The notes under the pieces are model-generated. The model ran no database searches, was not told the origin of the DNA, and saw only the letters and a program-made list of their open reading frames with translations. A stretch of 49,284 bases of DNA, from positions 1 through 49,284 of the forward strand of contig CAZUQT010000004.1 in the NCBI GenBank assembly GCA_964622585.1. The letters are read 5' to 3'. The position numbers were made by a program, and so were the translations under genes. Source of the DNA: an uncultured Elusimicrobiaceae bacterium. Lineage in GTDB: Bacteria; Elusimicrobiota; Elusimicrobia; Elusimicrobiales; UBA9959. Below are positions 5,819 through 43,117 of this stretch, piece after piece (within the stretch, counting starts at the first letter, position 1; every line of letters starts with the position of its first letter).

Positions 5819-6805
5819 ATGAGGACAAAAACAATAATGCTGGCACTTTTGGCGGTAACCGCGGGCGTCTTCGCTTATACGCCCCCACATAACGCTACCC
5901 CGTCCGACCTGAGGGATGCGGTGGCCGACCGCGCTATTGACACGCTGAAAACCGAGGCCGGCGCGGAGGCTTCCGGTGTCAGTATTACGAAGCCGGATAT
6001 AAAGCCGTTCTATGTCGAGACCGGCTCCAGAAAGGCTCCAGGCAATAAGGGTTATGTGGCCGGGACGGATTCGGTAGCCGGCGTGCCTGTAAAGCCGGTG
6101 GTGTTCAACACCATCCCCGGCGGAAAGTTCACCATGGGGACGGACACCGGCGAAAAAGGTTTTGAAGATGCCAAGCCGATCCATGAGGTTGCCATCAAAA
6201 CCTTTGATATGTCCAAAACAGCGGTTACCGTAGAGCAATACGCGGAATGCGTGATCAAAGGCGCCTGTACGGAACCGGGCACCGGCGATTATTGCAACTG
6301 GGGCAAGCCCGGCCGCCAGCTTCACCCTGTGAACTGCGTGAACTGGGACCAGGCGCAGGCTTATGCCAAGTTCAAAGGCGCGCGGCTCCCCAGCGAAGCC
6401 GAGTTCGAGTATGCGGCCACAAGCGGCGGCAAGAATCAGAAATACCCCTGGGGCGATGATGAGCCGACCTGCGACAAGGCCGTGATGTATGGTAACGACG
6501 GTTTCGGTTGTGGTAAAAACAGCACGATGCCGGTGTGTTCAAAGCCTGCCGGTAATACCGCGCAGGGTTTGTGCGATATGGTGGGGAATGTCTGGCAGTG
6601 GATGCAGGATAAATACCAGGATTCATACAAGGGTGCGCCTGTTGACGGCAGTGCGTTTGAAGCTGCGGGCTCCGCCCGGGTGATGCGTGGCGGTTCCTTC
6701 GGCAGCAATGTCGCCAGGTACCTGCGGGCCGATTTCCGCTTCTACGGCGGCCCTGGCGACCGCGTCGGCGGCATTGGGTTCCGCCTCGTGAGGTCCAGTC
6801 GTTAA
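5819..6805 (+). CDS. Secreted FGE-sulfatase (SUMF1/CLec-fold) domain protein with DLRDAVAD leader; candidate DGR target
   Basis: Signal peptide; IPGGKFTMG, HPVNCVNW, RLPSEAEFEYAA, YPWG, DMVGNVWQW, RGGS and GFR motifs. Confidence 0.9.
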   Translation: MRTKTIMLALLAVTAGVFAYTPPHNATPSDLRDAVADRAIDTLKTEAGAEASGVSITKPDIKPFYVETGSRKAPGNKGYVAGTDSVAGVPVKPVVFNTIPGGKFTMGTDTGEKGFEDAKPIHEVAIKTFDMSKTAVTVEQYAECVIKGACTEPGTGDYCNWGKPGRQLHPVNCVNWDQAQAYAKFKGARLPSEAEFEYAATSGGKNQKYPWGDDEPTCDKAVMYGNDGFGCGKNSTMPVCSKPAGNTAQGLCDMVGNVWQWMQDKYQDSYKGAPVDGSAFEAAGSARVMRGGSFGSNVARYLRADFRFYGGPGDRVGGIGFRLVRSSR

Positions 6806-6807
6806 CT

Positions 6808-6838
6808 CTTGGACACTTGTCCAGTTGGTCCTTGGACA
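6808..6838 (+). other. Short hairpin / repeat element just after the FGE gene stop (possible DGR homing hairpin)
   Basis: TGGACA-CT-TGTCCA inverted repeat at 6810-6823; CTTGGACA repeated at 6808 and 6831. Confidence 0.4.
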
Positions 6839-6901
6839 TGAGCTGTTGCGATAAATCGGTATTATGAGTGAACGCTAGATCAGCGGGATAAAGGTGATCT
6901 T

Positions 6902-7642
6902 ATGAAAACCAGAATAGTATTGATCATTCTCATCGCGGCAACCGTCGGCGTGTCCGTTTACACGCGGCCGCACAATGCCCTGCCCTCCGATCTGCGGGAC
7001 GCGCCTAATTCAAACGCCTCCGCGCTCGGGCAGCTTGACACCTCCGGTCGGGATGGGGGAGGCTCCCTGCCTGTCCCGGTTCCTGCGCGGGCGGCTAAAG
7101 ACGGTTTTGTTGCGCCCGCGAAACTGACGGTGCGCGATGTTACTGGCGTAGTCGCAAAACTCCAAAGGCCGGCGCCGCCGATGAACTATATATTGGCGCA
7201 CATGAACGGCGCCGGATTCAATGCGAATGCCTGCGTCGGCAGATACGCGTCGGACATGGTATTCCTCGCGTCCGAAAGAAGCTTCCAGTCAACTGCGCGG
7301 GACCTTGCCGGGTATGATTTTATCGCCGATATACTGGTCACAAGAGATGTCCTGCCCGGCAATCCTAAAATGACGCTTTTGGGCGACGGAACGTGGGATT
7401 TCATTGTGGTAAAGCTCGCCGGGCTGCCGCCCGTACTGGCCATGGAGGCGGAATTGCGCGCGAACCGCTTAAGCGTGATGACCTGTTACGACGTTAACAG
7501 GGAACATTTTCTCCTGGTCCTGGCGCCCAATAATCCTCCCGCGTTAGCGCATATAGAAAAAACCCTGTCAGGATATGACTTCATCAGGGAGATAGAGATG
7601 AACCAACGGTTGTACAGCACGCTTAAATCTAACCAATACTGA
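6902..7642 (+). CDS. Secreted hypothetical protein with DLRDA leader and an internally duplicated domain
   Basis: MKTRIVLII...YTRPHNALPSDLRDA leader. LAGYDFIADI and LSGYDFIREI close two similar halves. Confidence 0.75.
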   Translation: MKTRIVLIILIAATVGVSVYTRPHNALPSDLRDAPNSNASALGQLDTSGRDGGGSLPVPVPARAAKDGFVAPAKLTVRDVTGVVAKLQRPAPPMNYILAHMNGAGFNANACVGRYASDMVFLASERSFQSTARDLAGYDFIADILVTRDVLPGNPKMTLLGDGTWDFIVVKLAGLPPVLAMEAELRANRLSVMTCYDVNREHFLLVLAPNNPPALAHIEKTLSGYDFIREIEMNQRLYSTLKSNQY

Positions 7643-7779
7643 AAGATGGGAACGGGGATGAGGAAGTAATTCCAGGAGGCAGCATTATGAAAATCAAAAT
7701 AACGGCATTTATAACCGCGAACCAGGTTGAAGTAATTGCCTTTTTGTATTTTTTTTAGGCAGTTGCGGTATATTAGTAT

Positions 7780-8295
7780 ATGCAGACGCTGACCGGAATG
7801 GGCTTTTTTTAATCAGGCCCGTTCCGCGTGGTGTTTGCCGTCATTGGCTTTTGGATTCTTCTGGAGCGAAGATATCCCGGTGCATAATGAGAACTTCTTC
7901 TTTTGAAAGCGTTTTTTTCATGAGGACTTTAGGATGAAGATCCGGACGGCGGCGATCGCCGGGCTTGCGCGGTACAGGGATGAAAGGGTGTTCAAAGCGC
8001 TGGAAAACCGGCTGGGTGACAAATCGCAGTCGGTACGCAGCCTGGCCGCCTGACGGCATGAATGCCCCCTTGGACACAATTAAAGGCTGCTGGGAAAAGG
8101 CAGCTAAAAAAGACGGGCGCGAATTATTCGAACGGGTCGAACTTATACGCGCGGAGGAAGCCGCCGTTTCCGGTTACAGCCTCCAACTGGCGCAAATACT
8201 GGATAACGCCAACGGCTACGCCACGCATGATAAGGGAGAAAACACCGGTTTTTTTCCTTATAGAGACCCGGATAGAAAAATTAAAAGAATTCTGA
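7780..8295 (+). pseudogene. Mosaic, frameshifted remnant of a paralog of the 10690 HTH regulator
   Basis: The 5' part resembles MMGTGFSKQLIKARSA. The 3' part (FERVELIRAEEAAVSGYSLQLAQ...GFF / LIETRIEKLKEF) matches the 10690 C-terminus with a frameshift in a T-run near 8250. Confidence 0.8.
7934..8053 (+). pseudogene. HEAT (PBS-lyase-like) repeat fragment embedded in the regulator remnant
   Basis: Translates to MKIRTAAIAGLARYRDERVFKALENRLGDKSQSVRSLAA*, a HEAT-like pattern (LxDxxxxVRxxAA). Confidence 0.5.
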
Positions 8296-8299
8296 GGTT

Positions 8300-8424
8300 T
8301 GGTAACTATTCCTGTTCCTAAAATCGCCGGCGGAATAACACGGAGTTTTAGGTCTTATAACTGCCCGCCCCTTCCCTTCCGCCTCATGCCATAACCGCCG
8401 GTTTGAGTTAGACTATGATTGTAG
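8300..8424 (+). promoter_or_regulatory. Promoter cassette B, copy 1 (downstream of the HTH regulator remnant)
   Basis: Collinear with 11551-11675: TGGTAAC..TTCCTGTT, CCTAAAA/TTTTAGG inverted pair, CTTCCC..GCCTCATGC, -10 TAGACT at 8409. Confidence 0.65.
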
Positions 8425-8459
8425 CCGGGAATAATATTGGGTTTTCAAAGGAGAAATAA

Positions 8460-8990
8460 ATGAGAAATCTAACAAGAGTCAGTTCCGTAATCGCCTCGGT
8501 CGGTATTTTATTTGCGGTTAATAGTGTGAAGGCCGCCGGGTTGAACGATGAGGAAGCCTTCGCTAATTCGCTGGCCCCGTCGGCTTTGACCCAGATAGAG
8601 CTACCGAAGTCGGCGCTGCCCACGCAATTGTCGGTGTTATCCGCCTCGGGGGATATATTCTTGAACTTTTCGGAATGCCGGATCGTGGACGCTAAATTCA
8701 AAAAGCAACCGACAATCCTTGAGAGCATAGAGCTGCTTTCCGGGTGCATGAAGCAGATGTCCAGGCAGTATAAATCACAGGTCAAGGCGACCCATGCTGC
8801 GTTACCTGTCGGCCCACAAGGCGGCTCGCCCTGGAGCATAAAACTTGTTGTTTCAGAAAATTTGCCGGTGGGAAACATGCTCCTTTCCGATCTCAGCTAT
8901 TCGCTGGAAAAACGCAATCATCAGCTGTTTGGCTATCCGGCGACTCTCGATTTGGGTGGGGCCAATAGAGACTTTTACCAACGGGATTAA
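8460..8990 (+). CDS. Secreted hypothetical protein
   Basis: AAGGAG RBS, signal peptide ending VKA, two Cys residues. Confidence 0.7.
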   Translation: MRNLTRVSSVIASVGILFAVNSVKAAGLNDEEAFANSLAPSALTQIELPKSALPTQLSVLSASGDIFLNFSECRIVDAKFKKQPTILESIELLSGCMKQMSRQYKSQVKATHAALPVGPQGGSPWSIKLVVSENLPVGNMLLSDLSYSLEKRNHQLFGYPATLDLGGANRDFYQRD

Positions 8991-9007
8991 TGAGTCGTGT
9001 TAGGGAA
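8960..9007. repeat. 48-bp dispersed repeat, copy 1 (possible element end or recombination site)
   Basis: ggccaatagagacttttaccaacgggattaatgagtcgtgttagggaa; 44/48 identical to 12927-12974. Confidence 0.85.
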
Positions 9008-9024
9008 TAGTTTGCGGTGTAAAT

Positions 9025-9271
9025 CCGCTCAAGGGTGGGCATTCTACCTGCTGATATTTTTCATGGAACGGCCGGGGGAGGTCCTTTCAAGGGATCTTTT
9101 GGCCGAGGCGGTCTGGGGAGCCGGCCCGTTGCCCCGCGCGCGGGGGCTTTGGATATGAGCATCTCGCGTCTCCAGAAAAAACTTGGCCTCACCGGAGCGC
9201 GGATAGTCACTGTGAAATCACGCGGATACATCCTGACCGAGTTCCATAAAAACCCTCCGGCGGTTAGGTAG
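9025..9271 (+). pseudogene. C-terminal winged-helix fragment of an OmpR-family response regulator (paralog of 41414), frameshifted
   Basis: FMERPGEVLSRDLLAEAVWGAGPLP / GALDMSISRLQKKLG...RGYIL aligns with FMERRGKVLSRGLLLEGVWGTGPLP..GALDMSLSRLRRKLG...RGYVL. Confidence 0.85.
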
Positions 9272-9316
9272 CGGTTAGAAACCCTTCGGGACTTCAGGCG
9301 GTTTTTGCTCTATACT
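9256..9316 (+). promoter_or_regulatory. Promoter cassette A, copy 2 (-10 TATACT at 9311)
   Basis: 59-bp identity to 5723-5781, followed by the same GGTGTTATGAGGACAAAAAC start context. Confidence 0.75.
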
Positions 9317-9349
9317 AATTGTAACGGAACAGTTATTCGAGGCGGTGTT

Positions 9350-9403
9350 ATGAGGACAAAAACTGCGCCGTTCGTTACAGGGCTTGCCGTGCTGGCTTAT
9401 TGA
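9350..9403 (+). pseudogene. Truncated start of an MRTKT-leader gene (17 codons, then stop)
   Basis: MRTKTAPFVTGLAVLAY*; same start context as the 5819 gene. Confidence 0.55.
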
Positions 9404-9745
9404 GGCCGGCGCCCAAGGTCCGGAGCAGGTGAGCGCAGTCCTCAGGAACGCCGCTATTTCGCTTGATGGCCTGGGTCCCGAGTTTCAGGGAGCGGGGTTT
9501 ATTATCGCGAGCAGAATAGAAGGTATATATGTTTCCACCGCTTCCGGCATTGTAGATACTATCTAGCAGGGTGTCCCATGAGGAATTATGGCGACAGCTT
9601 ACCGGAATTGGATATCGGTTTAAATTTAAATAAAGCGCGTAGCCTTAAATAAGGGGCGAGTCGCGGTCCCTTGTTTTTACTATCCGGCGGCTATAATAAT
9701 GAATTGCGGGGACGGACTGGGGAATTAAAAGACAGGAGCAATAAA

Positions 9746-10312
9746 ATGAAAAAGAGCATGATCGTTGCGCTCGCAGCGCTTGTAGTGGCGGCCGGAGCGG
9801 CCGCCGCTAAAGAAGTCAAAACCGGCAAGAGGGACTGCGCGGGTCGCCCGGAGCACGGACAGGCCGGCGCGAAGAAATGCGCCAATAAGATGTGCCCCGA
9901 AGCGATGGATGGGGTGGAGACCGCCGCCAGGAACACCCCCGACGGTATCGAGATAACGATGACCGCCAGGAACGCGGAAACGATCTCCAAGCTCCAGGAA
10001 CTCACCCTGGTCCATTACACCAGCAAGGAAACAATGGAAAAGGACTGCCCCTCGCGCGTGGAAGGCGCCGTGGCCAGGATAGAGAACACCTCCACCGGGG
10101 TTAAAGTCTATATCACAGGCAAAACCCTTGCGCACATAAAGAAGATACAGGCCGCCGCCGCCAAGGACCACTCCAAGGCCGGCTGCCCCGAGGAACACGG
10201 CAAAAAAGAGGCCAAAGCCTCCAAGAAGTACGCCTGCCCCATGAAATGCGCCGAGTCCGATAAGCCGGGCAAGTGCCAGAAATGCGGAATGAACATGACG
10301 GTGAAGAAGTAA
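9746..10312 (+). CDS. Secreted protein with a duplicated domain and a C-terminal heavy-metal-binding (YxCPM...CxxCGM) motif
   Basis: AGGAG RBS before ATG 9746, signal peptide, two CP..G..I....G repeats, C-terminal YACPMKCAESDKPGKCQKCGM. Confidence 0.8.
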   Translation: MKKSMIVALAALVVAAGAAAAKEVKTGKRDCAGRPEHGQAGAKKCANKMCPEAMDGVETAARNTPDGIEITMTARNAETISKLQELTLVHYTSKETMEKDCPSRVEGAVARIENTSTGVKVYITGKTLAHIKKIQAAAAKDHSKAGCPEEHGKKEAKASKKYACPMKCAESDKPGKCQKCGMNMTVKK

Positions 10313-10385
10313 ATATTCTCCGTATCAGTTTAATTCGGAAGTGAAGAAGGGCCCTTGCTGGCTGTTTTGCGGGTGCGTTCTCCTA

Positions 10386-10537
10386 TACACGCCCCCACAG
10401 CGCCATCCCGTCCGAACTTAAGGGACGCGGTTGGTGATTCACCCACCAGCGCAATGAAGGGGCTAAAATCGTCAGTTGGCGCTATAGATGTGGGCTTGCA
10501 GGAAGCACTGAGCCCGGACTACGTCTTAGTGCCGTGA
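10386..10537 (+). pseudogene. Degenerate remnant of a DLRDAVAD-leader gene
   Basis: tacacgcccccac...ccgtccgaacttaagggacgcggttggtgat aligns, with indels, to the YTPPHNATPSDLRDAVAD coding sequence of the 5819 gene. Confidence 0.65.
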
Positions 10538-10689
10538 ACGCTTGATAATGCGGTTCCGATAATTGTGTCGAGCCGTGCCGAAGTAAAAGCGGACACTTTG
10601 CCCTCTGTAAAAGCAATGTATGTGTTCAAGACGCCGGTTGTCAGCGTGTAAAACGGGAACCAGGGTCGCAAGATGGTACAATAGGACGT

Positions 10690-11538
10690 ATGATGGGAAC
10701 GGGTTTTTCGAAACAGCTCATTAAGGCGCGTTCAGCAGCGGGGTTCGACACGGCCTACAAATTCTACCACCGTAACGGCGGCCGACGGCATTTTAAATTC
10801 ACCTTTGTTCACTACAGCCGTATAGAGCGCGGGGTTTCACTGCCGCGCGCCGAAGGGTTGCAGGGAATTCTTTTGGCTTTGCGTTTTCTGCCCACCGAAG
10901 CCGGGGCGAGGGAACTGCTTGTTTCATACCTTCGAAGCGCATTGGGTGGCGGCCCCGCAGCGGATTACATATTGAACCCGCTTTTCAGCGGAGGCGGTAA
11001 TATTGCCAGTTCCGCAGGTCCCATGGACTGGATAAAAGCCCACAATTCCGTGCACCTTTCTCCTGACGAGTTTTCCGCCATAGCGGCCAGCGAAACAGCC
11101 TACTGGTGCGCGGAAGCCCTCTGCAACGATTCCGGGGCGTGGAGACCGGAGGAGCTGGCCGGGAAACTCAATCTGGAAGCCAAAGCGGTAAAAACCGCCT
11201 TAGAGAAATTGAAAAAAGCCGGGATAGCCGTTAAGAGCGCCGGCGGCAAATACAAATGCCGCTATCAGGGGAAATTTTTCACCTACCCGGGCCGCCTTGA
11301 AGGCATGGATAGATCACTCGCCGCGGTAAAGTCATACTGGGATAAAGCCGGGGTGAACGGCAGGATCTTTTTCGAGCGTGTAGAACTCATCCGCGCGGAG
11401 GAAGGCGCCGTTTCCAACTACCGCCTGCAGCTGGCCCAGGCTATGGATGGGGCCAACGCCTACGCCACCCACTCCGGCGGGGACACCTCCGGTTTCTTCC
11501 TGATAGAGACACGTATAAAAAAGATACGGAAATTCTGA
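10690..11538 (+). CDS. Transcriptional regulator with an N-terminal XRE-like HTH and a second winged HTH
   Basis: FSKQLIKARSAAGF...HYSRIERGVSLP (XRE-like) and PEELAGKLNLEAKAVKTALEKLKKAGI (wHTH-like). Confidence 0.75.
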   Translation: MMGTGFSKQLIKARSAAGFDTAYKFYHRNGGRRHFKFTFVHYSRIERGVSLPRAEGLQGILLALRFLPTEAGARELLVSYLRSALGGGPAADYILNPLFSGGGNIASSAGPMDWIKAHNSVHLSPDEFSAIAASETAYWCAEALCNDSGAWRPEELAGKLNLEAKAVKTALEKLKKAGIAVKSAGGKYKCRYQGKFFTYPGRLEGMDRSLAAVKSYWDKAGVNGRIFFERVELIRAEEGAVSNYRLQLAQAMDGANAYATHSGGDTSGFFLIETRIKKIRKF

Positions 11539-11550
11539 TCAGCAGTCTGC

Positions 11551-11675
11551 TGGTAACGGTTCCTGTTACTAGAACGCCGCAGGTCATAAAGCGTCCGTTC
11601 TAGGTCAAAAAAATCCAATTTTCTTCCCCACAGCCTCATGCGGCGGCCGACAGGCCGCGCTATACTATACCTGTA
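11551..11675 (+). promoter_or_regulatory. Promoter cassette B, copy 2
   Basis: GTAAC-N7-GTTAC palindrome, CTAGAACG/CGTTCTAG inverted pair, -10 TATACT at 11661; collinear with 8300-8424. Confidence 0.65.
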
Positions 11676-11716
11676 AGCTGAATAAAGTCAACCAGATATT
11701 TAAGGAGAAAAATAAT

Positions 11717-12226
11717 ATGAAAAGCGCCAAGTCGAGGTTTCGTGCCGTAGTTTCAGGTTTTATTCTATTAATAGGTCCGGGTGTTGCTTTTGCCGATAGC
11801 GCAACGCTTGACCAATTATATGGAGCGGCCGATAATCCATCCGGCATTTATGACGGTGCTGTTGCCCGCGGCGGCTCGCCGGTAGTTGTTACAGGGAACC
11901 CGCTAACCGATACCGCTTCTCCCGTATCGGAAGCTTCAGCCGTAACATCAGCGCCTTCAGCGGTAATCCCGCTTACGCGGGCAAAGGATATTAAAGGAAG
12001 AGTTCCCGGGCTCAAGGCCGGAGAGAAGAGCGCGGAGGGAGCCGCAGTCGGCGCCGCAGGTGGATTTATGGGCGGTTTTTTGCTCATGATGAGTCCAGCC
12101 ATAGCGCTCGGCAGCATAATTCCTGTCGCAGGTAAATTACTGGGAGCGGTCCTGTTTGTGCCCGCCGTAGTGGTTGGCGTGGTTACGGCGCTTATCGGTG
12201 CTGTAGTCGGGGCGCTTATCCAATAA
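11717..12226 (+). CDS. Secreted/membrane protein with a C-terminal glycine-zipper-like hydrophobic region
   Basis: AAGGAG RBS, signal peptide (AFA), GAAVGAAGGFMGG and hydrophobic C-terminal helices. Confidence 0.7.
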   Translation: MKSAKSRFRAVVSGFILLIGPGVAFADSATLDQLYGAADNPSGIYDGAVARGGSPVVVTGNPLTDTASPVSEASAVTSAPSAVIPLTRAKDIKGRVPGLKAGEKSAEGAAVGAAGGFMGGFLLMMSPAIALGSIIPVAGKLLGAVLFVPAVVVGVVTALIGAVVGALIQ

Positions 12227-12292
12227 AGCGCGGGCCTGCAAGTGGCGTGGGGGGCCTAGTAGCTGTAGATGTCCACTAAGGAGGCGGAATAA

Positions 12293-12970
12293 ATGAGACA
12301 ACTGATCCTAACGGCAGGTCTGATAGCAATGTGGCTCGTAGTAGTTCACGCTGAGAGCGGCGCGGCGCAAGGATACGAAACACTCAGAGATATTCATGGA
12401 GCGAGGCAAGCCGGTAAACTGAACCCGGCATTCCTTGGCGACTGGAAGGGACCCTCTCCAGCCGGCGCGGCGCCGGTCTCAGCCGTGCCTGGCTGCCCCG
12501 GTATAGATGACATAAAGTCCGAGTGGGTAGAGCACACGGACCCGGATGGCATCCCAGTCCGGATCAAGGAGCATCTAAATTCGCGGCTGGTTCAGTTCAG
12601 TCCGATTTTACTGTCAATACACCGCGTCCCCTACTATTTAGGGGTGTCACGCCGCGGAGACCTTCTTGCGCAGGCGGATCTGGAACCAGGCTGCCGGGTA
12701 ACCGGCACGGTGGCTTATTATGTAATCGGGGAGGAGGGAAATCCTGAAATCAACTTCGATCTCCTCATGTCCGATCCGGGTCGGGAAGAGACTTTGGCTG
12801 CACGTTTGGCCGAACTGCGCTGGTTCGATCTTAAAGACGGCCGGCGTCATCGCTGGTACAATCTAAAACTCGCCGCAAGCCGCGGGTGGCTCGTGGACGA
12901 GTATGGCCGCCCCACTCCGGACTATAGGCCGATAGAGACATTTACCAACGGGATTAATGAGTTGTATTAG
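12293..12970 (+). CDS. Secreted hypothetical protein
   Basis: AAGGAGG RBS and signal peptide (VHA). The 3' end runs into the 48-bp repeat. Confidence 0.7.
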   Translation: MRQLILTAGLIAMWLVVVHAESGAAQGYETLRDIHGARQAGKLNPAFLGDWKGPSPAGAAPVSAVPGCPGIDDIKSEWVEHTDPDGIPVRIKEHLNSRLVQFSPILLSIHRVPYYLGVSRRGDLLAQADLEPGCRVTGTVAYYVIGEEGNPEINFDLLMSDPGREETLAARLAELRWFDLKDGRRHRWYNLKLAASRGWLVDEYGRPTPDYRPIETFTNGINELY

Positions 12971-12974
12971 GGAA
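12927..12974. repeat. 48-bp dispersed repeat, copy 2
   Basis: ggccgatagagacatttaccaacgggattaatgagttgtattagggaa; same orientation as 8960-9007. Confidence 0.85.
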
Positions 12975-12978
12975 CATT

Positions 12979-13047
12979 TTCCCGAAGGTGATTCAAAGCG
13001 GGAAGGCTCTTGCGAAAGCGGAGGAGATCCTCAGGAACCGGTCGTGA
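12979..13047 (+). pseudogene. 3' remnant of a paralog of the 14838 response regulator
   Basis: FPKVIQSGKALAKAEEILRNRS* versus FPKMISPERVIEKAQEVLRDRR*, with the same TGAcATG junction to the next gene. Confidence 0.7.
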
Positions 13048-13415: not shown

Positions 13416-14834
13416 ATGAATACATCTTTTCGCTTGAATTTCATAGCATTTTCCGTTTTGTTGCTGCCGGTCCTGGCTTTTAGTGTCTGCCTGTGGGCGT
13501 TCAACAGCAGTTTACCCGATGCCCTGTTTGCAGCCGTAGTTTCAACCGCTCTTGCAGCTTTTTTTGCGGCCAGGGCCATACTGTCCGGCCTGGCCCGGCC
13601 TGTGGTAAAGGCGTCTTCGGTCGTAAAAGGTTTTATAGCCGCCGATTACCGGCTTGAGTCTGTTATTAAGAAAGAGGGCTGGCCCGAGGCCGGGAGCCTT
13701 ATTTCCGGCCTTAACAGGCTGATGCTTGAATTGAGCGCTTACCGTGCCTTCCACCTTAACCAGGTGGTGGAGGACCGCGCCAAGGCCCAGGCGCTGATAG
13801 AAACAATAACCGACGGCGTCCTGCTTCTGGACGACCGCGGGCAGCTTATTTATTCCAACAGGAAAGCTCTTAACCTGCTTTGTATCCCGGAACAGGAACC
13901 CGGCATTTCGCTGCCTGGGTCCGTGCGGCAGGAAGCCTTTTTAGCGGTCTTAACACGGATTATGTCATCGGAGGAAAACAACCTGAAGGCCGAAGTCGAC
14001 GTCCCGGTTCCAAGCGAGCCTTTCCTGAGCGGACGATTGGAGGCAAACCTGGAGCCCGCGGTTAAAAGTTTCCGCATCACTTCACGGCACTTCCAGCTGG
14101 CGACGCTTAAACGTCCGGGCCGCGTTATAGTCCTGCGCGATGTTACCATGGAAAAGGAAATTGAGAGCGCGCGTGAAACGCTTTTTAATATGATAACCCA
14201 CGATATGCGGGCGCCGCTTACAAGCATACAGGGCTACGCGCAGATCATAAAAAAAACCGTTCCCCTGGCCCCCGCTACGGAGAAGTGCCTGGATGTAATA
14301 TTACGCTCTTCCACCCGGCTGAATGGCATGATAGAGGACATTCTCAACACTATAAAGCTTGAGCACGGCGAGATGAAGCTGAATCCTGTAGCTGTTAACG
14401 CGGGGGATCTGTGCGCGCGTGTGTTCGAAGTTCACGAACCACTGGCCGCGCGGAAGAATATAAAACTTTCCTTTGTCCCTCCGCCTGAAAAGATAGAGTT
14501 CTGCGGCGATATGGCTTTGCTGGAGCGGGTAATAAGCAACCTTGTCGGCAATTCGCTGAAATTCACCGCGCCCGGCGGAACCGTGACCATTTCCTGCCGC
14601 CGGGATGCGGGCGTGGCGAGATTCTCCGTCGAGGATAACGGGCCTGGTATCCCGAAAGAGAAGCACGCTGAAATTTTTAAAAAATACGCCCAGCAGGAAG
14701 AACATAAATTTATGGGTTTCGGCCTCGGACTTGCCATGTGCAAGCTGGCGGTGGAACTGCATGAAGGGTGCATCTGGGTAGAATCGGAAGAGGGGAAAGG
14801 AAGCAAATTCGCCTTTTCCATCCCGGCAAAATAA
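13416..14834 (+). CDS. Sensor histidine kinase (2 TM, HAMP-like, PAS, HisKA, HATPase)
   Basis: H-box THDMRAPL, N-box NLVGNSLKF, DNGPGI and GFGLGL. Confidence 0.92.
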   Translation: MNTSFRLNFIAFSVLLLPVLAFSVCLWAFNSSLPDALFAAVVSTALAAFFAARAILSGLARPVVKASSVVKGFIAADYRLESVIKKEGWPEAGSLISGLNRLMLELSAYRAFHLNQVVEDRAKAQALIETITDGVLLLDDRGQLIYSNRKALNLLCIPEQEPGISLPGSVRQEAFLAVLTRIMSSEENNLKAEVDVPVPSEPFLSGRLEANLEPAVKSFRITSRHFQLATLKRPGRVIVLRDVTMEKEIESARETLFNMITHDMRAPLTSIQGYAQIIKKTVPLAPATEKCLDVILRSSTRLNGMIEDILNTIKLEHGEMKLNPVAVNAGDLCARVFEVHEPLAARKNIKLSFVPPPEKIEFCGDMALLERVISNLVGNSLKFTAPGGTVTISCRRDAGVARFSVEDNGPGIPKEKHAEIFKKYAQQEEHKFMGFGLGLAMCKLAVELHEGCIWVESEEGKGSKFAFSIPAK

Positions 14835-14837
14835 CCT

Positions 14838-15230
14838 ATGGCTAAAATACTTATCGTCGACGACGAGCCCGCTATAAGAGAACTGTTTAAATATGTTTTC
14901 GAGGACGCGGGGCACGAGGTGGCGCTGGCGAATAACGGCCTGGAGGCGCTTGACGCGCTTCAGGGCGGCGTCCCGGATTTTATGGTTCTGGACGTCTCAA
15001 TGCCGGAAATGACCGGGACGCAGATGGTCGTGGAGCTCGGCCGCCGCGCGGCGCGGGACCCGCGGCTGAACAATATCCCATTTGTCGTAATGACCGGAGA
15101 AAATTTCATGGAGTCGGAATTGAACAAAGTTTTTTCCGGGGCCCCGGGTTTTGTCTGCTTTTTTCCGAAGATGATATCACCCGAGAGAGTAATTGAGAAA
15201 GCGCAAGAGGTTCTCAGGGACCGGCGGTGA
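14838..15230 (+). CDS. Single-domain response regulator
   Basis: KILIVDDE...VLDVSMPEM...MTG...PK. Confidence 0.9.
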   Translation: MAKILIVDDEPAIRELFKYVFEDAGHEVALANNGLEALDALQGGVPDFMVLDVSMPEMTGTQMVVELGRRAARDPRLNNIPFVVMTGENFMESELNKVFSGAPGFVCFFPKMISPERVIEKAQEVLRDRR

Positions 15231-15231
15231 C

Positions 15232-15597
15232 ATGCACATACTTATAGCTGAAGACGATGAGCTTTTAAGGGCGCTTCTGACGGACTTTCTGTCTGAACTG
15301 GCACACGAGGTTAAGAGCGCCGAAAACGGCGCGGAGCTGGTTAAACTGGCTTTAGCCGGGCGGCCTGACCTGGTGATAACCGACCTTCATATGCCTGAGA
15401 TGGCGGGGGGGTCTATGATCGCCATGCTGGATATGTATCCGGAGCTTGCGGGGATCCCCCTTATAATAATTACCGGCGCAACGGCGGCGGAGCTTCGTGA
15501 TATGGGAATTCCGAAGGAGATCCCCGTTTTGCCGAAACCCTTTGATTTCGCCCGGATAGCCGCGGCGGTTGACCGCGCGGCACTCCGGGAGAAATAG
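15232..15597 (+). CDS. Single-domain response regulator
   Basis: MHILIAEDD...ITDLHMPEM...ITG...KPF. Confidence 0.9.
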   Translation: MHILIAEDDELLRALLTDFLSELAHEVKSAENGAELVKLALAGRPDLVITDLHMPEMAGGSMIAMLDMYPELAGIPLIIITGATAAELRDMGIPKEIPVLPKPFDFARIAAAVDRAALREK

Positions 15598-15716
15598 ACA
15601 GCCACCTATTCACGCTTTGCTCGTTGACAAAGACCGGCTGCGGGTTATGTAAATTTTCCTCTTTTCGTTATTTCTTCGGGATTCAGGGCTATATAGTGCA
15701 TAGACTATATATACCT

Positions 15717-17444
15717 ATGATGCTCAGGAGCGGGCTATCTTTACGCAGTTGGACGATAACACAGGCGGCTTGTGCGGTTCTTGCGTTTTATCCCTGCGCT
15801 TTTGCCGGAGACGCGGGTTCCTCCGCCGCCTCTTTCCTTAAATTCTCTCCCAGCCCGCGCGGCGCCGGCATGGGGGAGGCGTATACCTCCATCACCGAAG
15901 ACGCCTACTCCGCTTGGTGGAACCCGGCCGGGCTTGGCAGTGTGGAGAGCCCGGAGCTTGCCGCCACCTATAACGACTCCATGGAAGACGTGACGACCCA
16001 GTATTTGTCCGTGGCTTATCCAATACGTTATGGTTCCACCCTTGATTTTAACATTACCCGGCTCAGCGTCCCTCCTTTCCAAGGCTATGACGCGCAGGGC
16101 ACGAAGAGCGCCAAGGTGGAATCCTCTGATATCGCGGTGGGGGGGGCATATGGCAGGGTTCTCCTTAAAGACGAAATTGAGCGGCCGTTGCTGAACGTGG
16201 GAGCGGGGCTTAAGGTTATAAGCGAGAAACTGCATAGAGCCTCCGCAAACACGGCCGCGCTGGACCTGGGCGCTGTTTATTACATAAGGCCGGCCAATTA
16301 CTGGATGAGCAAGGCGCCGGCGCAGGAATTCCGCGTGGCCGTGGCGGTAAGGAATATCGGGCCGGGGTTGAAGTTCGACCGGCGCTCATCCCCTTTGCCC
16401 ACGTCCGCCACGCTGGGCGGCTCCTGGCATTCCCACCCCGGCGGCAGCGCCAGTCTGATTCTGAGCCTGGACCAGACCTATGCGAACGATGAAAAATATT
16501 ACGCAGCGTTCGGCGCCGAATATGTGGCCTTCCAATTACTCTCTCTCAGGGCCGGCTACCGCACCGGCCAGGCTATAGGCAGCGGCCTGCGCATAGGCGT
16601 GGGTTTCCGGCTTTCTCTCATGGACATAGATTATTCCATGTCCCCTTATGGGGAACTGGGTGCCATGCACAAGTTGGGTGTTTCCATGCGGCTTGGTCCG
16701 CCTGTGGCTAAACAACCGCTTGCGGGCAGGACCCAGCGGGTGGAGAAGGCTAAATTGATGGCCAGGAAAGAAAAGATAGAAAAGCTGGATATATTCGCTA
16801 ATGACTTCCTGGAACTGGCCCGCAAAGACCTGGCCGCGCGCAGGTATGTTTCCGCGGATGGCAACATCAACAAAGCCTTCAACCTGGAGCCGGGACTTAA
16901 AGAGGGAGACTGGGGCCGCAGGCAGAAGCGCTTGGCCGCGGTGATAACCGGGCTTAAGCTGGCGGACATCCAGGCCAGGGAACAGCTGCTTTCAAAAGAC
17001 ACCGAACAGTCAAATACCGGGGCTGAGGCTATAAACGCCTATGTGGAGGGTAAGGACCTTAAAGCTTTCCTGCTTACGCACGCGGCGCTGGGCTCGAATA
17101 TGCGCGGTGACGCCATGTTCGAGGAGCTGCTTTACATAATGAGTGACCTTGTTAAGATCCATGTCCGCCGCGACGAGATCCTGCCGAGGGAAGCTCTTAT
17201 TAAGGAAAAGCTCAGGAAAGCCGCGAAAGGTTTTTATATACGGCAGTTCGATACTGCCGCCAAGGAATGCGAGGAAGTGTCCGTATTGGACGAAGAGAGC
17301 CCTGTGGCCTGGACAAGGTTGGGCTCCGCCTACTTTATGCTTGGTGACAGGGAAAAAGCTAGAAAGGCCTATCAGAGAGCGCTGGCTCTCAATCCAGGCG
17401 ATCAGATTACGATGAAATTTATGGAAGCGCAGGGCTGGAAATAA
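15717..17444 (+). CDS. PorV/PorQ-family outer-membrane beta-barrel fused to a C-terminal TPR region (start approximate)
   Basis: FLKFSPSPRGAGMGEAY...WNPAGL (PorV/FadL-like N-terminus), amphipathic strands ending DYSMSPYGELGAMHKLGVSMR, TPR AWTRLGSAYFMLG...YQRALALNP. Confidence 0.85.
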   Translation: MMLRSGLSLRSWTITQAACAVLAFYPCAFAGDAGSSAASFLKFSPSPRGAGMGEAYTSITEDAYSAWWNPAGLGSVESPELAATYNDSMEDVTTQYLSVAYPIRYGSTLDFNITRLSVPPFQGYDAQGTKSAKVESSDIAVGGAYGRVLLKDEIERPLLNVGAGLKVISEKLHRASANTAALDLGAVYYIRPANYWMSKAPAQEFRVAVAVRNIGPGLKFDRRSSPLPTSATLGGSWHSHPGGSASLILSLDQTYANDEKYYAAFGAEYVAFQLLSLRAGYRTGQAIGSGLRIGVGFRLSLMDIDYSMSPYGELGAMHKLGVSMRLGPPVAKQPLAGRTQRVEKAKLMARKEKIEKLDIFANDFLELARKDLAARRYVSADGNINKAFNLEPGLKEGDWGRRQKRLAAVITGLKLADIQAREQLLSKDTEQSNTGAEAINAYVEGKDLKAFLLTHAALGSNMRGDAMFEELLYIMSDLVKIHVRRDEILPREALIKEKLRKAAKGFYIRQFDTAAKECEEVSVLDEESPVAWTRLGSAYFMLGDREKARKAYQRALALNPGDQITMKFMEAQGWK

Positions 17445-17453
17445 GGAGGGACC

Positions 17454-18395
17454 ATGGAAATTTTGATAATAGCCCTTATTCCCCTGTCCCTGTTGCTCCT
17501 TGGCGCCGGGTTCCTTGTGGTGGCACAGGTTTCCGGTTTCATGCAGTCCGTGTTCTTTAACAGCCGGCAGAATTTCTCCAATATGGTCATACAACAGTAC
17601 ATGGAACGCATTGCGCTGGCGCAGGGGCAGCTTTACCAGAGAAAGCAGGAACTAGAAGGAATGTCCGTAGAACTTTCTTTGTCCAATCAGGAGCTGGGCC
17701 GTCTGAACGATATGAAATCCAAATTCCTCTCCATGGTGGTACACGATGTGCGCACGCCGCTGGCCTCAATACGGGGCTTCAGCGAGCTGCTGCTAAAGAA
17801 GAACGTGGGCGAAAAGGAAGCGGCGTACCTTAAGAACATCGTTAATTCCACGAACCAGCTCGGGCGCCTTATAGCTGATCTGACGGACCTGGCCATGATA
17901 GAGGCCGGGAAATTGAAAATGGAGAAGGCCGTTTTTAATTTTCCCGAGGTGGCTAAAGATATTCTGCCCGGCCTTTCTATAAACGCCCAGATAAAAGGAG
18001 TGGAACTAATAGTGCATGATTACCCTGAGGGAACGAGCGTGGATGGGGATAAGTTCCGGCTTTCGCAGGTACTGATGAACCTGGTGAACAACGCTATTAA
18101 GTTCACCCCCGCCGGGAAAAAAGTGGAGATATCCTTCAGGAAGGAAGGCAGATCGATTGACACCCTTGTAAGGGATTCCGGCATAGGAATACACCCGAGT
18201 GAAACGAAAAGGATCTTTGAAAAGTTTTACCAGGCTAAGTACCAGAAAGACGAAAAACTGCGCAAACAGGGCTGGGGTCTGGGGCTTTCCATAGCGCAGG
18301 AGATAGTGCGCGCGCATAATGGTGACATCGGCGCGACCAGCACCGGGCTGGGGAAGGGCTCAACTTTCTGGTTTAAAATACCGGTCAGCGCTTGA
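17454..18395 (+). CDS. Membrane-anchored histidine kinase (1 TM, HisKA, HATPase)
   Basis: VHDVRTPL, NLVNNAIKF, DSGIGI and GWGLGL. Confidence 0.92.
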   Translation: MEILIIALIPLSLLLLGAGFLVVAQVSGFMQSVFFNSRQNFSNMVIQQYMERIALAQGQLYQRKQELEGMSVELSLSNQELGRLNDMKSKFLSMVVHDVRTPLASIRGFSELLLKKNVGEKEAAYLKNIVNSTNQLGRLIADLTDLAMIEAGKLKMEKAVFNFPEVAKDILPGLSINAQIKGVELIVHDYPEGTSVDGDKFRLSQVLMNLVNNAIKFTPAGKKVEISFRKEGRSIDTLVRDSGIGIHPSETKRIFEKFYQAKYQKDEKLRKQGWGLGLSIAQEIVRAHNGDIGATSTGLGKGSTFWFKIPVSA

Positions 18396-18429
18396 AGCAC
18401 GGTAGAAGACTTGGATTCGGAGGAATGTA

Positions 18430-19167: not shown

Positions 19168-19181
19168 GGAGGGTAAATAGT

Positions 19182-20708: not shown

Positions 20709-20717
20709 AGAGGACCT

Positions 20718-23122: not shown

Positions 23123-23134
23123 CCGGATGCGATT

Positions 23135-23827: not shown

Positions 23828-23871
23828 CCTTTGACAGCGGTATCATCTTCCTGAGTATTTTTAAGCTTATT

Positions 23872-23895: not shown

Positions 23896-23908
23896 TTAGA
23901 GGTCTGCT

Positions 23909-24918: not shown

Positions 24919-25105
24919 TTCCGCATTTAATTCTGCGACGGAAAACACGAAATCCGCTCACGCAGTTGTGATTTACTTTCACGCCTGTTAATTCTATATT
25001 AACTGCGCAGACAGGGGTATTGGGGGTAGAGTGCGGTCGTCGTATGAAAAAACGGCTCCCGGCGGACTTCCGAGCCGGGAGCCGCCTATTTCCAGGAGAA
25101 CTCTT

Positions 25106-27262: not shown

Positions 27263-27346
27263 CCCGAAAAGCACATCCGCGGCCGCCGCTTTATACCACC
27301 CGTCCCTCCTGCTTGCGGCTTTTGCGTCACCTTTATGTTAAAACTA

Positions 27347-27419
27347 TTGACATTTGTGGAGAGAATTGTATAAACTAACATATCTAACATATCTAATAAA
27401 TCTAACATATTTAATATAT
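27347..27419 (+). promoter_or_regulatory. Sigma70-type promoter followed by five tandem 9-bp repeats (CTAACATAT consensus)
   Basis: TTGACA at 27347, TATAAA/TAAACT at about 27369-27376; repeats at 27375-27419 run into the ATG. Confidence 0.75.
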
Positions 27420-40876: not shown

Positions 40877-40884
40877 AGCGCTAT

Positions 40885-40926: not shown

Positions 40927-40934
40927 CAGGGCTC

Positions 40935-41306: not shown

Positions 41307-41355
41307 AATCTTGATAAAAACTTTAGTGGCCAATGGGCGGAACGTGCTATACAAT
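41307..41355 (+). promoter_or_regulatory. Promoter motif C, diverged copy upstream of the OmpR regulator
   Basis: AATCTTGATAAAAACTTTAGTGG-N20-TACAAT. Confidence 0.55.
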
Positions 41356-41413
41356 ATATTGCAGCATATGTGCCGGCTTACTGCGTTTTCGCTGTCTATG
41401 AAATTCAGCGTTT

Positions 41414-42136
41414 ATGACCCAGAAATCACTTATTCTCCTTGTTGAAGACGAGCCCGCTGCAAGCGCGGCGTTGAGCGCGGTTCTTGCCGCGGAGGGTTAT
41501 GCCGTCAAGTGCGCATTTTCCAATTCGGAGGCTCTGGAGGCTTTGAAAAAGGGGCCTAAACCAGATCTAATTCTTTTGGACAGGGGGCTGCCCGATGGCG
41601 ACGGGCTTCAATTTTGCCTGCTGATCAGGGACTCCCCCCGGTTTTACGATGTTTCGGTTCTTTTCCTTACCGCAAGAGGGAAGGAGGAGGAGAGGGTGAT
41701 GGGTTTAAGGTTCGGAGGGGACGATTATCTTGTAAAGCCGTTTTCCATGGAGGAGCTTAAAGCGCGCGTCGGAGCGCTGCTCCGCCGGACAAACGGGCAT
41801 AAGCCGGCCGGGCAGTTGGCGCTCTCATACGCGGGGATAACCATGGATTTGCGGGACAAAACCGTGAGTTTTCGGGATAAAAAGATCCCGCTCAGGCCTT
41901 TGGAATACGAACTATTGAAGGTTTTTATGGAAAGGCGAGGGAAGGTTCTTTCAAGGGGTTTGCTTCTTGAGGGGGTCTGGGGGACCGGTCCTTTACCCGG
42001 CTCACGCGGGGCTTTAGATATGAGCCTCTCGCGCCTCCGGAGAAAACTCGGTCCCTGCCGCGGAGTGCGGATAGCCACGCTGAGAGCCCGCGGGTACGTC
42101 CTGGAAGAGTCCCATGAAAAACATCCGGCGGGTTAG
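41414..42136 (+). CDS. OmpR/PhoB-family response regulator
   Basis: LVEDE, LLDRGLPDGDG, FLTA, DDYLVKPF and wHTH SRLRRKLG...RGY. Confidence 0.93.
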   Translation: MTQKSLILLVEDEPAASAALSAVLAAEGYAVKCAFSNSEALEALKKGPKPDLILLDRGLPDGDGLQFCLLIRDSPRFYDVSVLFLTARGKEEERVMGLRFGGDDYLVKPFSMEELKARVGALLRRTNGHKPAGQLALSYAGITMDLRDKTVSFRDKKIPLRPLEYELLKVFMERRGKVLSRGLLLEGVWGTGPLPGSRGALDMSLSRLRRKLGPCRGVRIATLRARGYVLEESHEKHPAG

Positions 42137-42185
42137 ATAGCGGTTAGATACCCTTCGGGATTTACCGCGGCGTGTGCCTTATACT
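42124..42185 (+). promoter_or_regulatory. Promoter cassette A, copy 3 (diverged), overlapping the regulator stop codon
   Basis: GGTTAG at 42131 and 42142, ACCCTTCGGGA, TATACT at 42180; same 32-nt spacing as copies 1 and 2. Confidence 0.7.
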
Positions 42186-42358
42186 ATAAGCAGAACGAGA
42201 CGGTCTAACAAAGAGCCTCGGGACCAAGGACACTTAAGAATGTGCCGCTGAAGCGCTAAGTTATAAATACCGAATGATGTGGTAATGGTCGGTAAAAGAA
42301 TTTATCAGATAAAGAGTCAGGCGCTTCTTGAAGGTAAAGAGCGCATCTGGGAGGCATT

Positions 42359-43117
42359 ATGAGGACTAAGCTTAACCTGCTGATTGCGGCTATGATTGCT
42401 GCGGCGGGAGTATTTTACGTCAATAACATGCGCGACGCGGCCCCGGCTGTTCCAGGCGACCTACGCGACGCGGTGGCGGACGGCTCGGTGGTACAGCTTA
42501 TGGACAGTGGGGATTTTAGCGACATAAACGTACCGGAACCGAAAGCCGCGGAGGCCTCGTGTGTCTCAGAATCTGGAGTACCCTTGCCAATAGCCGAAAC
42601 CGGCGCTTCACTATCTCCAGAAGTTGTGGTTAGCAGGTTCCAACAGTCTGAAAAGGATTTAAAGGCATTGGAAAAAGCCGTCCCTTTATGGGTTTCCAAG
42701 CTTCAACTCTTACAGCTCAATGCCGCAACGACGCTTTTGGGCAACTCTCTCCCTCCCGATTTCGGCTATTGGCTAAGTGGTCTGGCCCTCAATACCGCCC
42801 AATGGGCCGACTATTTGCGTGAGGAGCTTTCTCCCGGTGTAGAATCTCTTTTGGACTGTGCGCAAAGATCAAAAACTCTGGATTCGTCCGCAAACCAGAT
42901 GAGTATAGCGGCTAAAAACATAAGGAGCCGTCTCCAGACCGCGATGCATGTTTCCAGTGCGATGCAGGCGAATCTTTCCGGTTCGGGTTTTCAATACCCC
43001 ATTGCTGTGCGTGTTACCGCAAATATCGCTGAACTGCAACGTTACATGAACACAATAGATAGAAATGTCGAAGCGCTGCAAAAAATAACTGGTACCACAA
43101 GTGGAAACAAACACTAA
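42359..43117 (+). CDS. Secreted protein with MRTK/DLRDAVAD leader and a helical C-terminal domain
   Basis: GGAGG RBS; MRTKLNLLIAAMIAAAGVFY...PGDLRDAVADGS. Confidence 0.75.
   Translation: MRTKLNLLIAAMIAAAGVFYVNNMRDAAPAVPGDLRDAVADGSVVQLMDSGDFSDINVPEPKAAEASCVSESGVPLPIAETGASLSPEVVVSRFQQSEKDLKALEKAVPLWVSKLQLLQLNAATTLLGNSLPPDFGYWLSGLALNTAQWADYLREELSPGVESLLDCAQRSKTLDSSANQMSIAAKNIRSRLQTAMHVSSAMQANLSGSGFQYPIAVRVTANIAELQRYMNTIDRNVEALQKITGTTSGNKH

Follow-up and report, generated by a model that had tools for sequence, protein, structure and literature searches.

An N-terminal leader shared by unrelated exported proteins of one Elusimicrobiales family looks like an undescribed protein-sorting tag

The DNA considered here is a stretch of 49,284 nucleotides (the window), which forms contig C4 of the 3.36-Mb, 374-contig, 86% complete assembly of an uncultured Elusimicrobiaceae bacterium. 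It encodes three predicted exported proteins that begin with a similar stretch of 37–41 residues, termed the leader, and then continue into dissimilar cargo parts. An initial annotation made from the letters alone had pointed out these three open reading frames (ORFs), starting at 5819, 6902 and 42359, and two decayed copies of the leader, at 9350 and in ORF 10355-10537. The three intact ORFs read as described and their coordinates were right; both decayed copies proved to be real.

5819..6805, + strand: leader protein 1 (P0001, 328 residues), starting MRTKTIMLALLAVTAGVFAYTPPHNATPSDLRDAVAD; leader, linker and FGE-sulfatase-like domain.
5819..5929, + strand: leader of gene 1, residues 1–37, composed of MRTK, the uncharged segment, TPPHN and PSDLRDAVAD; profile E 1.7e-33.
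6902..7642, + strand: leader protein 2 (P0002, 246 residues), starting MKTRIVLIILIAATVGVSVYTRPHNALPSDLRDAPNS; second gene of the tandem pair.
6902..7012, + strand: leader of gene 2, residues 1–37, ending PSDLRDAPNS; profile E 1.6e-24.
9350..9403, + strand: decayed leader gene, whose frame reads MRTKTAPFVTGLAVLAY and then meets a stop.
10355..10537, + strand: decayed leader remnant without a start, holding LLAVLRVRSPIHAPTAPSRPNLRDAVGD (..LLAV..P..NLRDAVGD) with the consensus spacing kept.
42359..43117, + strand: leader protein 3 (P0003, 252 residues), starting MRTKLNLLIAAMIAAAGVFYVNNMRDAAPAVPGDLRDAVAD; orphan cargo, predicted to be all-helical.
42359..42481, + strand: leader of gene 3, residues 1–41, with a 4-residue insertion before PGDLRDAVAD; profile E 6.0e-25.

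The profile was aligned from eight leaders of the window's genome and, judged by its within-genome E-values, the likeness of the leaders in the window is beyond chance. It also matched the remnant inside ORF 10355-10537, at 10363-10419 (E 0.0047). The decayed copy at 9350 is preceded by a 94-bp upstream module that is 88.5% identical, over 96 aligned positions, to that of the gene at 5819. Behind the leader, the three proteins show no visible similarity, in agreement with the initial annotation. P0001 carries an FGE-sulfatase domain (PF03781, E 2.2e-51, residues 98–325 in Pfam), which scores under the PvdO, EgtB and GldK cut-offs of NCBIfam; P0002 and P0003 match no family in Pfam or NCBIfam. 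When cargos were clustered by BLAST, P0003 remained a singleton and P0002 was linked to P0033 only. Homologue searches by word index with the cargo of P0003 (residues 66–252) and of P0002 (residues 62–246) returned the queries alone, which is weak evidence that the two are orphans, since BLAST joins P0002 to P0033. The AlphaFold models of these cargos are dissimilar to each other and both of low confidence: two beta-alpha-beta-beta-alpha-beta repeats for P0002 (predicted local distance difference test, pLDDT, 43.3) and four long helices over residues 87–247 for P0003 (pLDDT 53.8). The 'duplicated domain' initially ascribed to the product of 6902 thus finds weak support in a 12-residue self-match (E 0.001) and in the repeated secondary-structure pattern, and this cargo may consist of two alpha/beta repeats.

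Anchored on the core of the motif, 178 proteins revealed a common plan, in which a basic start is followed by an uncharged segment of 16–17 residues, a basic stretch and the block P-x-D-(L/F)-R-D-A-(V/P)-(A/S)-(D/E). The consensus reads MKTKITVVALLAVTAGVFAY, with M-K-T-K at the start, the uncharged run (16–17 residues in 135 of the 178 proteins) and T-R-P-H-N in the basic stretch. The first eight residues contain a mean of 1.9 K/R, and a mean of 2.0 basic residues (K, R or H) follow the uncharged run. The core begins at residue 30 in 102 proteins and within residues 28–34 in 162. In the block, P occurs in 167 of the 178 proteins, the first D in 170, L/F in 175, R in 177, the second D in 177, A in 178, and V or P in 144 and 23, respectively; position x is S in 121 and A in 26, and the block ends with A, S or G (126, 21 and 12) followed by D, S or E (132, 23 and 13). 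Because the anchoring pattern limited the five middle positions to 2–4 residues each, the counts at those five are partly circular; P and the last three positions were free. Three subtypes carry the same block behind different fronts, namely MKTK..AGVFAYTRPHN, MNTKLKW..GGFYAYNLRA and MTNWKKY..AAGFGYIKSSHRN. A proline-rich patch lies 25–29 residues past the block.

The front end has the layout of a Sec-type signal, with a basic n-region followed by an uncharged or hydrophobic h-region. Sites compatible with the (–3,–1) rule, at which cleavage may take place, occur after TAG in 139 of the 178 leaders, after VFA in 89 and, within the block, after A-V-A in 161. Other signal types left no trace in this set: a lipobox ([LVI][ASTVI][GAS]C) at the end of the h-region, a twin-arginine motif (RR-x-[FGAVML]-[LITMVF]) before it and a prepilin motif (G↓[FM]-[TS]-L-I-E, the arrow marking the cut) before the hydrophobic segment were each found in 0 of 178 leaders.

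The end of the leader could be located by comparison with paralogues that lack it. All ORFs of the window's genome were searched with four cargo domains. The C11 query retrieved 13 paralogues, none of which has the leader (12 start with ordinary-looking signal peptides and one is a fragment). Among 12 trypsin-like paralogues, one bears the leader, seven have ordinary signal peptides and four are fragments, and among six FGE paralogues five bear the leader (one of them cut by a contig end) and one has an ordinary signal peptide. A MlaC query yielded no paralogue among these ORFs. In the ordinary C11 paralogues the predicted cleavage site is followed by x(2-5)-FD.. (A↓EVNFDGG, A↓GINFDTN, AA↓QDFDS) and in the ordinary FGE paralogue by TETALDSL.., and the same elements follow the leader end ..RDAVA(D/S), as in RDFDTSIP, NGKFDTSIP and SGAALGQL. 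Either element, x(2-5)-FD.. or x(1-4)-ALDQL.., leads over a VPxP-type linker into the domain. The predicted cut of the ordinary signal peptides thereby aligns with the end of the leader.

These elements are widespread. Among 783 signal-peptide-like ORFs of the window's genome, chosen by a crude filter of our own, L[DGN][QS]L at residues 18–50 was present in 14 (vs 3–5 in three control windows deeper in the proteins) and [VIAL][PS]xP at residues 25–65 in 54 (vs 9–22). The combination x(1-5)-ALDQL or -FD plus VPxP thus appears to be a shared N-terminal linker, general to exported proteins of this organism and not specific to the leader. Since ordinary exported proteins have the linker in common with the leader proteins, the module boundary is placed directly after the block, and the leader is an export module in its own right, which takes the place of an ordinary signal peptide and can be exchanged for one.

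We had also considered 'ALDQL...VPxP' as a part of the leader; this was rejected, as the same linker stands behind ordinary signal peptides. In many ordinary exported proteins of this genome the mature part starts with x(1-5)-ALDQL or -FD.., and a VPxP patch follows 10–20 residues on, ahead of the domain.

Conservation of the block could be compared with the divergence of the codons underneath. Among paralogues in the window's genome, synonymous divergence (dS) of the leader codons ranges from 0.1 to more than 1.7, and the ratio of non-synonymous divergence (dN) to dS is mostly ~0.15–0.3 in the main group, with values up to ~0.5 in the closest pairs. For the leaders of 5819 and 6902, dS is 1.71 and dN 0.37. 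Across 23 leader genes of six genomes, four Pro, seven Leu/Phe, three Arg and four Ala codons encode the invariant residues, and the motif is unchanged at saturated synonymous divergence. Large to saturated dS combined with varied codon usage indicates that conservation acts at the level of the protein; the block is kept by selection on protein, not DNA, and recent copying alone does not explain it.

We next turn to the occurrence of the leader. A six-frame scan combined with the profile gave 13 matches at E ≤ 0.01 in the window's genome, which is a lower bound because several contigs end inside leader genes. They comprise the three genes and the remnant 10363-10419 of the window, one gene on C68 (cargo without known family), one on C186 (trypsin-like, truncated where the contig ends), three on C210 (FGE in two, the third truncated), two on C300 (FGE in each, one truncated) and two weak matches on C148 and C20. 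A word-index search for longer proteins, scored with the profile, returned 49 proteins at E ≤ 0.01 among 7,999 candidates, and the only source names among them were formylglycine-generating enzyme family protein [Elusimicrobiales bacterium] and serine protease [Elusimicrobia bacterium]. An exhaustive profile search of 1.84 billion cluster representatives found 152 at E ≤ 0.001, including 43 at ≤ 1e-10. Among the 150 matches listed, inspection placed the match at or near residue 1 except in four that were set aside, three as spurious (the repeat proteins P0077 and P0138, and P0152, which lacks an aligned stretch) and P0176 for a motif far from the N-terminus. The leader is therefore not confined to a few recent duplicates, as 152 clusters and dS values up to saturation attest.

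Its taxonomic range is narrow. In a sample of the phylum, 16 of 301 genomes had the leader, the window's own included; 14 of the 16 belong to the window's family. By family, the leader was present in 13 of 22 other genomes of its own family and in 2 of 26 of a second one, and it was found in 0 of 88 and 0 of 89 genomes of the two largest other families. A wider sample of its own family had it in 41 of 61 genomes and in 8 of 13 genera, with 1–11 matches each. A pattern scan (P[SGA]DLRDA[VP][ANS][DS]) across one genome for each of 185,579 species matched 158 stretches, of which 40, in 33 loci, were confirmed; the record titles of 28 loci name metagenome-assembled genomes of Elusimicrobia, Elusimicrobiales, Elusimicrobiota or Elusimicrobiaceae, and five say just 'bacterium'. 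Accordingly, the leader is specific to this Elusimicrobiales lineage, as the initial annotation had supposed, and the other genomes searched yielded none. In sets of 41, 70 and 147 proteins it is covered by no Pfam family, nor is it by any NCBIfam model in 24 proteins at E ≤ 0.1. The literature searched on signal peptides, sorting signals and secretion in Elusimicrobia and on the pilin of E. minutum (main texts) contained nothing on it: the passages covered of 10.1101/765248 never use signal peptide, secret, leader, PorV or motility, and PMC11495043 merely counts predicted secreted proteins. With neither a model nor a describing paper found, the leader looks like an undescribed protein-sorting tag.

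The cargo is diverse, as had been proposed. For clustering, proteins were cut 45 residues after the start of the block and at least 80 residues had to remain; a cut that retained the linker fused many groups, evidence that conservation extends to the linker. The 152 cargos fell into 75 groups unlinked by BLAST, with 57 singletons, and cover at least 11 Pfam families. The alternative that the proteins are homologous over their full length does not apply, since the cargos are unrelated. Of 147 representatives compared with Pfam (E ≤ 1e-5), 28 matched a family and 119 did not. The matches were FGE-sulfatase (10 proteins), Trypsin/Trypsin_2 (5, one with PDZ), Peptidase_C11 (4), Lcl_C (3) and, with one protein each, MlaC, Alpha_L_fucos, Cofac_haem_bdg, Y_phosphatase3/DSPc, Glyco_hydro_26 and Lnb_N. 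Further cargo, seen at loci of relatives, comprises an Exo_endo_phos protein and a 986-residue fusion of trypsin, HEAT and FGE parts. MlaC- and HtrA-like cargos are classical periplasmic proteins.

The genes for leader proteins are accompanied by a recurrent DNA element and by regulator genes.

5729..5745, + strand: GGTTAG-N5-GGTTAG direct repeat with an 11-bp period, operator-like, 74 nt upstream of the 5819 start.
8997..9271, + strand: frameshifted remnant of an OmpR-type winged-helix regulator, in two overlapping frames (...ERPGEVLSRDLLAEAVWG... and ...LDMSISRLQKKLGLTGARIVTVKSRGYILTEF), upstream of the decayed leader.
9262..9278, + strand: second GGTTAG-N5-GGTTAG copy.
41414..42136, + strand: OmpR-family response regulator (receiver plus winged helix; Response_reg E 1.6e-23, Trans_reg_C E 5.6e-17), directly upstream of leader gene 3.
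42131..42147, + strand: third direct-repeat copy, GGTTAGATAGCGGTTAG, overlapping the stop codon of the regulator gene 41414-42136.

Three copies of the repeat in the window compare with 0.15 expected, and none of 100 shuffles reached three. The whole 3.36-Mb assembly holds five, each upstream of a leader gene. The genes that come first in their arrays (5819, the decayed 9350, and those on C68 and C210) share ~95 bp with the repeat ~73 nt before the start, and these ~95 bp and the leader were duplicated together at five places in the genome. For P0003 the repeat lies 212 nt upstream of the start. On C210 an intact regulator gene ends just ahead of the repeat, as the regulator remnant 8997-9271 does in the window; this remnant clusters with response regulators, and the same 3′ end precedes leader genes on C210 and C68. 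Later genes of a tandem (6902; C210:1185; C300:2093) have a different, shorter upstream region and the same leader. An 11-bp-period direct repeat next to an OmpR-family regulator gene is what an OmpR/PhoB-type regulon presents at the sequence level, and the repeat is a putative binding site.

In relatives, leader genes form arrays as well, and of the 246 ORFs in 33 loci, 54 carry the leader. One contig (L018–L020) bears 15 co-directional leader genes in ~15 kb. Most of the gaps between them measure ~60–160 nt, but two are close to 500 nt and one reaches 1.2 kb; the cargo includes MlaC-like and FGE domains and several parts without known family. Between the ten leader genes on L019/L020 no ORF of at least 80 residues was called. 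Response regulators are the commonest neighbours of leader genes (14).

In one relative, a DDE transposase gene (L005:4275-5531) is located within a leader array, which fits arrays as variable islands. The region 7600-13000 of the window is a mosaic of duplicated and broken pieces. Its fragment 7965-8321 derives from a gene for a 282-residue protein at 10690-11538; a relative of this family, which has no NCBIfam match, adjoins a leader gene at L008:13352-14218. The ending ..PIETFTNGINE is present twice, near 8970 and at the end of 12293-12970.

One rival explanation is that the leader hitch-hikes, i.e. has no function beyond Sec export and belongs to a promoter/ribosome-binding-site/leader cassette spread recently by duplication and gene conversion. 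The joint duplication of upstream region and leader at five places, the tandem arrays (15 genes in ~15 kb in a relative), the decayed copies and transposase nearby and the subtype-specific uncharged segment speak for it. We nevertheless judge it very improbable, for the motif is invariant across large to saturated synonymous divergence of the leader, an identical block is found in three otherwise different subtypes and in 8 of 13 genera sampled, and second tandem genes keep the leader behind a different upstream region.

The arrays also bear on the likeness to polymorphic toxins suggested by the initial annotation, which is not supported. A system of this type, for toxins or for surface variation, would join one unvarying N-terminal region for trafficking to exchangeable C-terminal effectors, and the constant N-terminus, the variable and often orphan C-termini, the arrays with decayed copies and some hydrolytic cargo (proteases, an EEP-type nuclease/phosphatase, phosphatases) are reminiscent of one. 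However, all genes in the arrays are complete, each having a start and a leader of its own, the gaps between the ten L019/L020 genes reveal no immunity genes, MlaC, FGE, GH26, fucosidase and haem-uptake-like domains are found among the cargo, and no toxin family was matched in Pfam or NCBIfam. We give this explanation hardly any credence.

A further proposal of the initial annotation, made as a speculation, concerned the PorV/motor genes of the window, which lie in an operon-like run.

15624-17444: PorV/PorQ-family protein with TPR tail (NF033709, E 6.5e-45, 154 bits vs a cut-off of 90).
18430-19167: MotA/ExbB protein.
19182-20708: fusion of FliF_C, FliG_M and FliG_C.
23135-23827: MotB/OmpA protein.

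The run (13416-28005) contains a histidine kinase, two receiver proteins, the PorV/PorQ protein with its TPR part, a second kinase, MotA/ExbB, the Fli fusion, a pair of coiled-coil proteins, MotB/OmpA and further two-component genes. To our knowledge the lineage is not known as flagellated, and the motor-like module is thus unusual.

If this module constituted a route resembling the type IX secretion system (T9SS) or a motor-driven export path, the leader might mark its cargo. For this speak the true PorV/PorQ-family protein, encoded in an operon with MotA/ExbB, the FliF_C–FliG fusion and MotB/OmpA, and the resemblance of the FGE fold to the T9SS ring protein PorK/GldK (TIGR03525, E 3.8e-24, far under its cut-off). 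The co-occurrence test covered the PorV family and the close motor orthologue, defined by a best E ≤ 1e-90 for the FliF–FliG protein, in the 61 family genomes. Close orthologues of the fusion were detected in 42 of 61, besides several distant paralogues per genome. The motor was present in 32 and absent from 9 of the 41 genomes with the leader, compared with 10 present and 10 absent among the 20 without it; this modest enrichment carries little weight because the genomes are related to each other. One genome without a close motor orthologue, G214, is 100% complete and has nine leader matches; conversely, ten genomes possess the motor and no detected leader. The PorV/PorQ family (NF033709) occurs in 61 of 61 family genomes, with 4–33 matches each and 26 in the window's genome, and therefore does not discriminate, while among 14 control genomes it matched in Bacteroides thetaiotaomicron only. 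A T9SS C-terminal sorting domain (Por_Secre_tail or the type B C-terminal domain, CTD) was found in none of 24 (NCBIfam, E ≤ 0.1) or 147 (Pfam, E ≤ 1e-5) leader proteins. A dedicated link between leader and motor is thus not supported, which is not a disproof since each genome has several distant motor paralogues; we regard such a route as improbable.

We also looked for an enzyme that could handle the leader. Peptidase_S26 matches numbered 1–4, mostly two, in 60 of the 61 family genomes. A dedicated signal peptidase as a marker was rejected, as two S26 copies are found in genomes both with and without the leader. The short type I signal peptidase paralogue of the window's genome (C57:5018-5512) has a single in-frame TGA inside its Pfam match, which may reflect an error in sequencing, the decay of the gene or recoding. 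Two membrane proteins encoded ahead of the trypsin-type member are syntenic and exhibit no protease-like features by eye.

Taken together, we consider it somewhat probable that the leader proteins represent an exported class of one Elusimicrobiales family, whose block would be read by a shared partner after Sec export. The front end would carry the protein across the inner membrane by Sec, and the conserved block, then at the outer face of the inner membrane, would be recognised by the partner, which would confer a common fate that ordinary exported paralogues lack. In the preferred version, signal peptidase would cut after the uncharged segment and leave an 18-residue N-terminal tag. This tag would serve as a signal for sorting or processing, and a later cut at the A-x-A↓D that ends the block may take it off. 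This second cleavage is kept as a live possibility, since the block end fits the (–3,–1) rule better than the sites adjoining the uncharged segment. The arrays would probably be switched on together by the neighbouring response regulators.

As to the role of the motif, we infer a sorting tag, a second cleavage site or a membrane tether, and among these outcomes a retained N-terminal tag is favoured over a permanent tether, which in turn is placed above a long presequence cut at A-x-A↓D. If the leader were a permanent tether, the uncharged segment would remain uncut, the proteins would be type II inner-membrane proteins, and the block would form a membrane-proximal stalk docking to a common partner, with the ordinary paralogues as soluble versions. 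The length of the uncharged run (16–17 residues in 135 of 178) and the basic residues on both sides of it (mean 1.9 K/R before, 2.0 after) are compatible with this, and the best-conserved (–3,–1) site lies away from the segment (AVA in 161 of 178 vs VFA in 89). The AlphaFold model of P0003 likewise runs a single helix through residues 2–30, at low confidence. Soluble and tethered versions of one enzyme family are a common arrangement within a genome, and the paralogues in this genome could be seen in that light. On the other hand, the first 19–20 residues match ordinary signal peptides in length and ending (..PGVAFA↓D and ..AASAAMA↓A vs ..TAGVFA↓Y), a rule-compatible site follows TAG in 139 of 178, and the cargo includes MlaC-type lipid shuttles, which are normally soluble. 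We hold the tether to be rather unlikely.

Several observations weigh against the retained tag read by a shared partner. No candidate handling enzyme emerged from S26 copy numbers, neighbours or co-occurrence, and no non-regulatory neighbour recurs except the 282-residue family, which was seen at three places, these belonging to two genomes. Good conservation of the uncharged segment is limited to the subtypes (MKTK.., MNTKLKW.., MTNWKKY..), a pattern that would fit cassette descent and not recognition of the segment. The A-x-A↓D site is ~18 residues past this segment and hence beyond the known reach of ordinary signal peptidase. Equally, the segment, with basic residues following it, might stay uncut and anchor the protein in the membrane. 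Furthermore, the absence of the leader from 20 of 61 family genomes may partly stem from poor assembly of repeated genes, and with MlaC- and HtrA-like cargo the shared fate need not be secretion past the periplasm.

Known systems offer partial parallels. Proteins of the TasA/TapA type carry a SipW-cognate signal peptide (TIGR04088 in NCBIfam), a class-specific signal served by a dedicated signal peptidase. As in that class, a conserved N-terminal export signal is shared here by exported proteins of several kinds within one lineage, and this implies that a dedicated step handles it. In contrast, the leader has no NCBIfam match, TIGR04088 included (E ≤ 0.1, 24 proteins), its block comes after the hydrophobic core instead of inside it, leader genes have no signal peptidase gene next to them, and the number of S26 paralogues is independent of the leader. 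The lipoprotein export signal (LES) of Bacteroidota surface lipoproteins is a short acidic motif at the mature start that follows the lipidated cysteine and sets the fate after Sec. The leader block is likewise short, acidic, lineage-specific and placed on many unrelated cargos, yet the leaders have no lipobox (0/178), and both phylum and motif differ. In the curli subunit CsgA, an N-terminal 22-residue targeting peptide mediates a step after Sec, through the channel CsgG, and can carry foreign cargo. There, too, a short N-terminal stretch of a Sec-exported protein serves as a further transport signal; the CsgA peptide, however, belongs to one family with a known channel, whereas the leader is attached to ~75 cargo groups and has no known channel.

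C-terminal tripartite signals include PEP-CTERM with exosortase, LPXTG with sortase, GlyGly-CTERM with rhombosortase and the T9SS CTD. Like the leader, they combine a short motif with a hydrophobic helix and basic residues and occur on numerous unrelated exported proteins of one lineage, in several to many copies per genome, and the leader, with its order of basic residues, helix and motif, reads as their mirror image. Unlike them, it is N-terminal and doubles as a Sec signal, no co-occurring sorting enzyme was found, and their models remained unmatched. With respect to regulation, OmpR/PhoB-type regulons use direct-repeat boxes spaced by 11 bp, and the 11-bp-period repeat beside an OmpR-family regulator gene, ahead of exported-protein genes, resembles these.

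In its most far-reaching form, the proposal would be that the block defines a new class of N-terminal sorting signal, acting after Sec and read in these Elusimicrobiales by a dedicated machine, for instance a protease that processes it, a translocon of the outer membrane or a receptor that tethers it, and that it travels in a portable regulator-box/promoter/leader cassette recruiting any exported domain into one co-regulated, commonly routed secretome. We put this forward tentatively, as possible rather than probable. Shared linear sorting signals have repeatedly led to new transport or anchoring machines, as with sortase, exosortase, rhombosortase and T9SS. The leader described here is N-terminal, sharply defined and restricted to an uncultivated lineage, with more than 150 carriers, most of them without a family. 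A short leader profile would label many 'hypothetical proteins' as one export class, and a portable export tag may become possible if the mechanism is worked out. For the free-living Elusimicrobia, the leader would provide a handle on a co-regulated set of exported proteins and on the reader of the tag.

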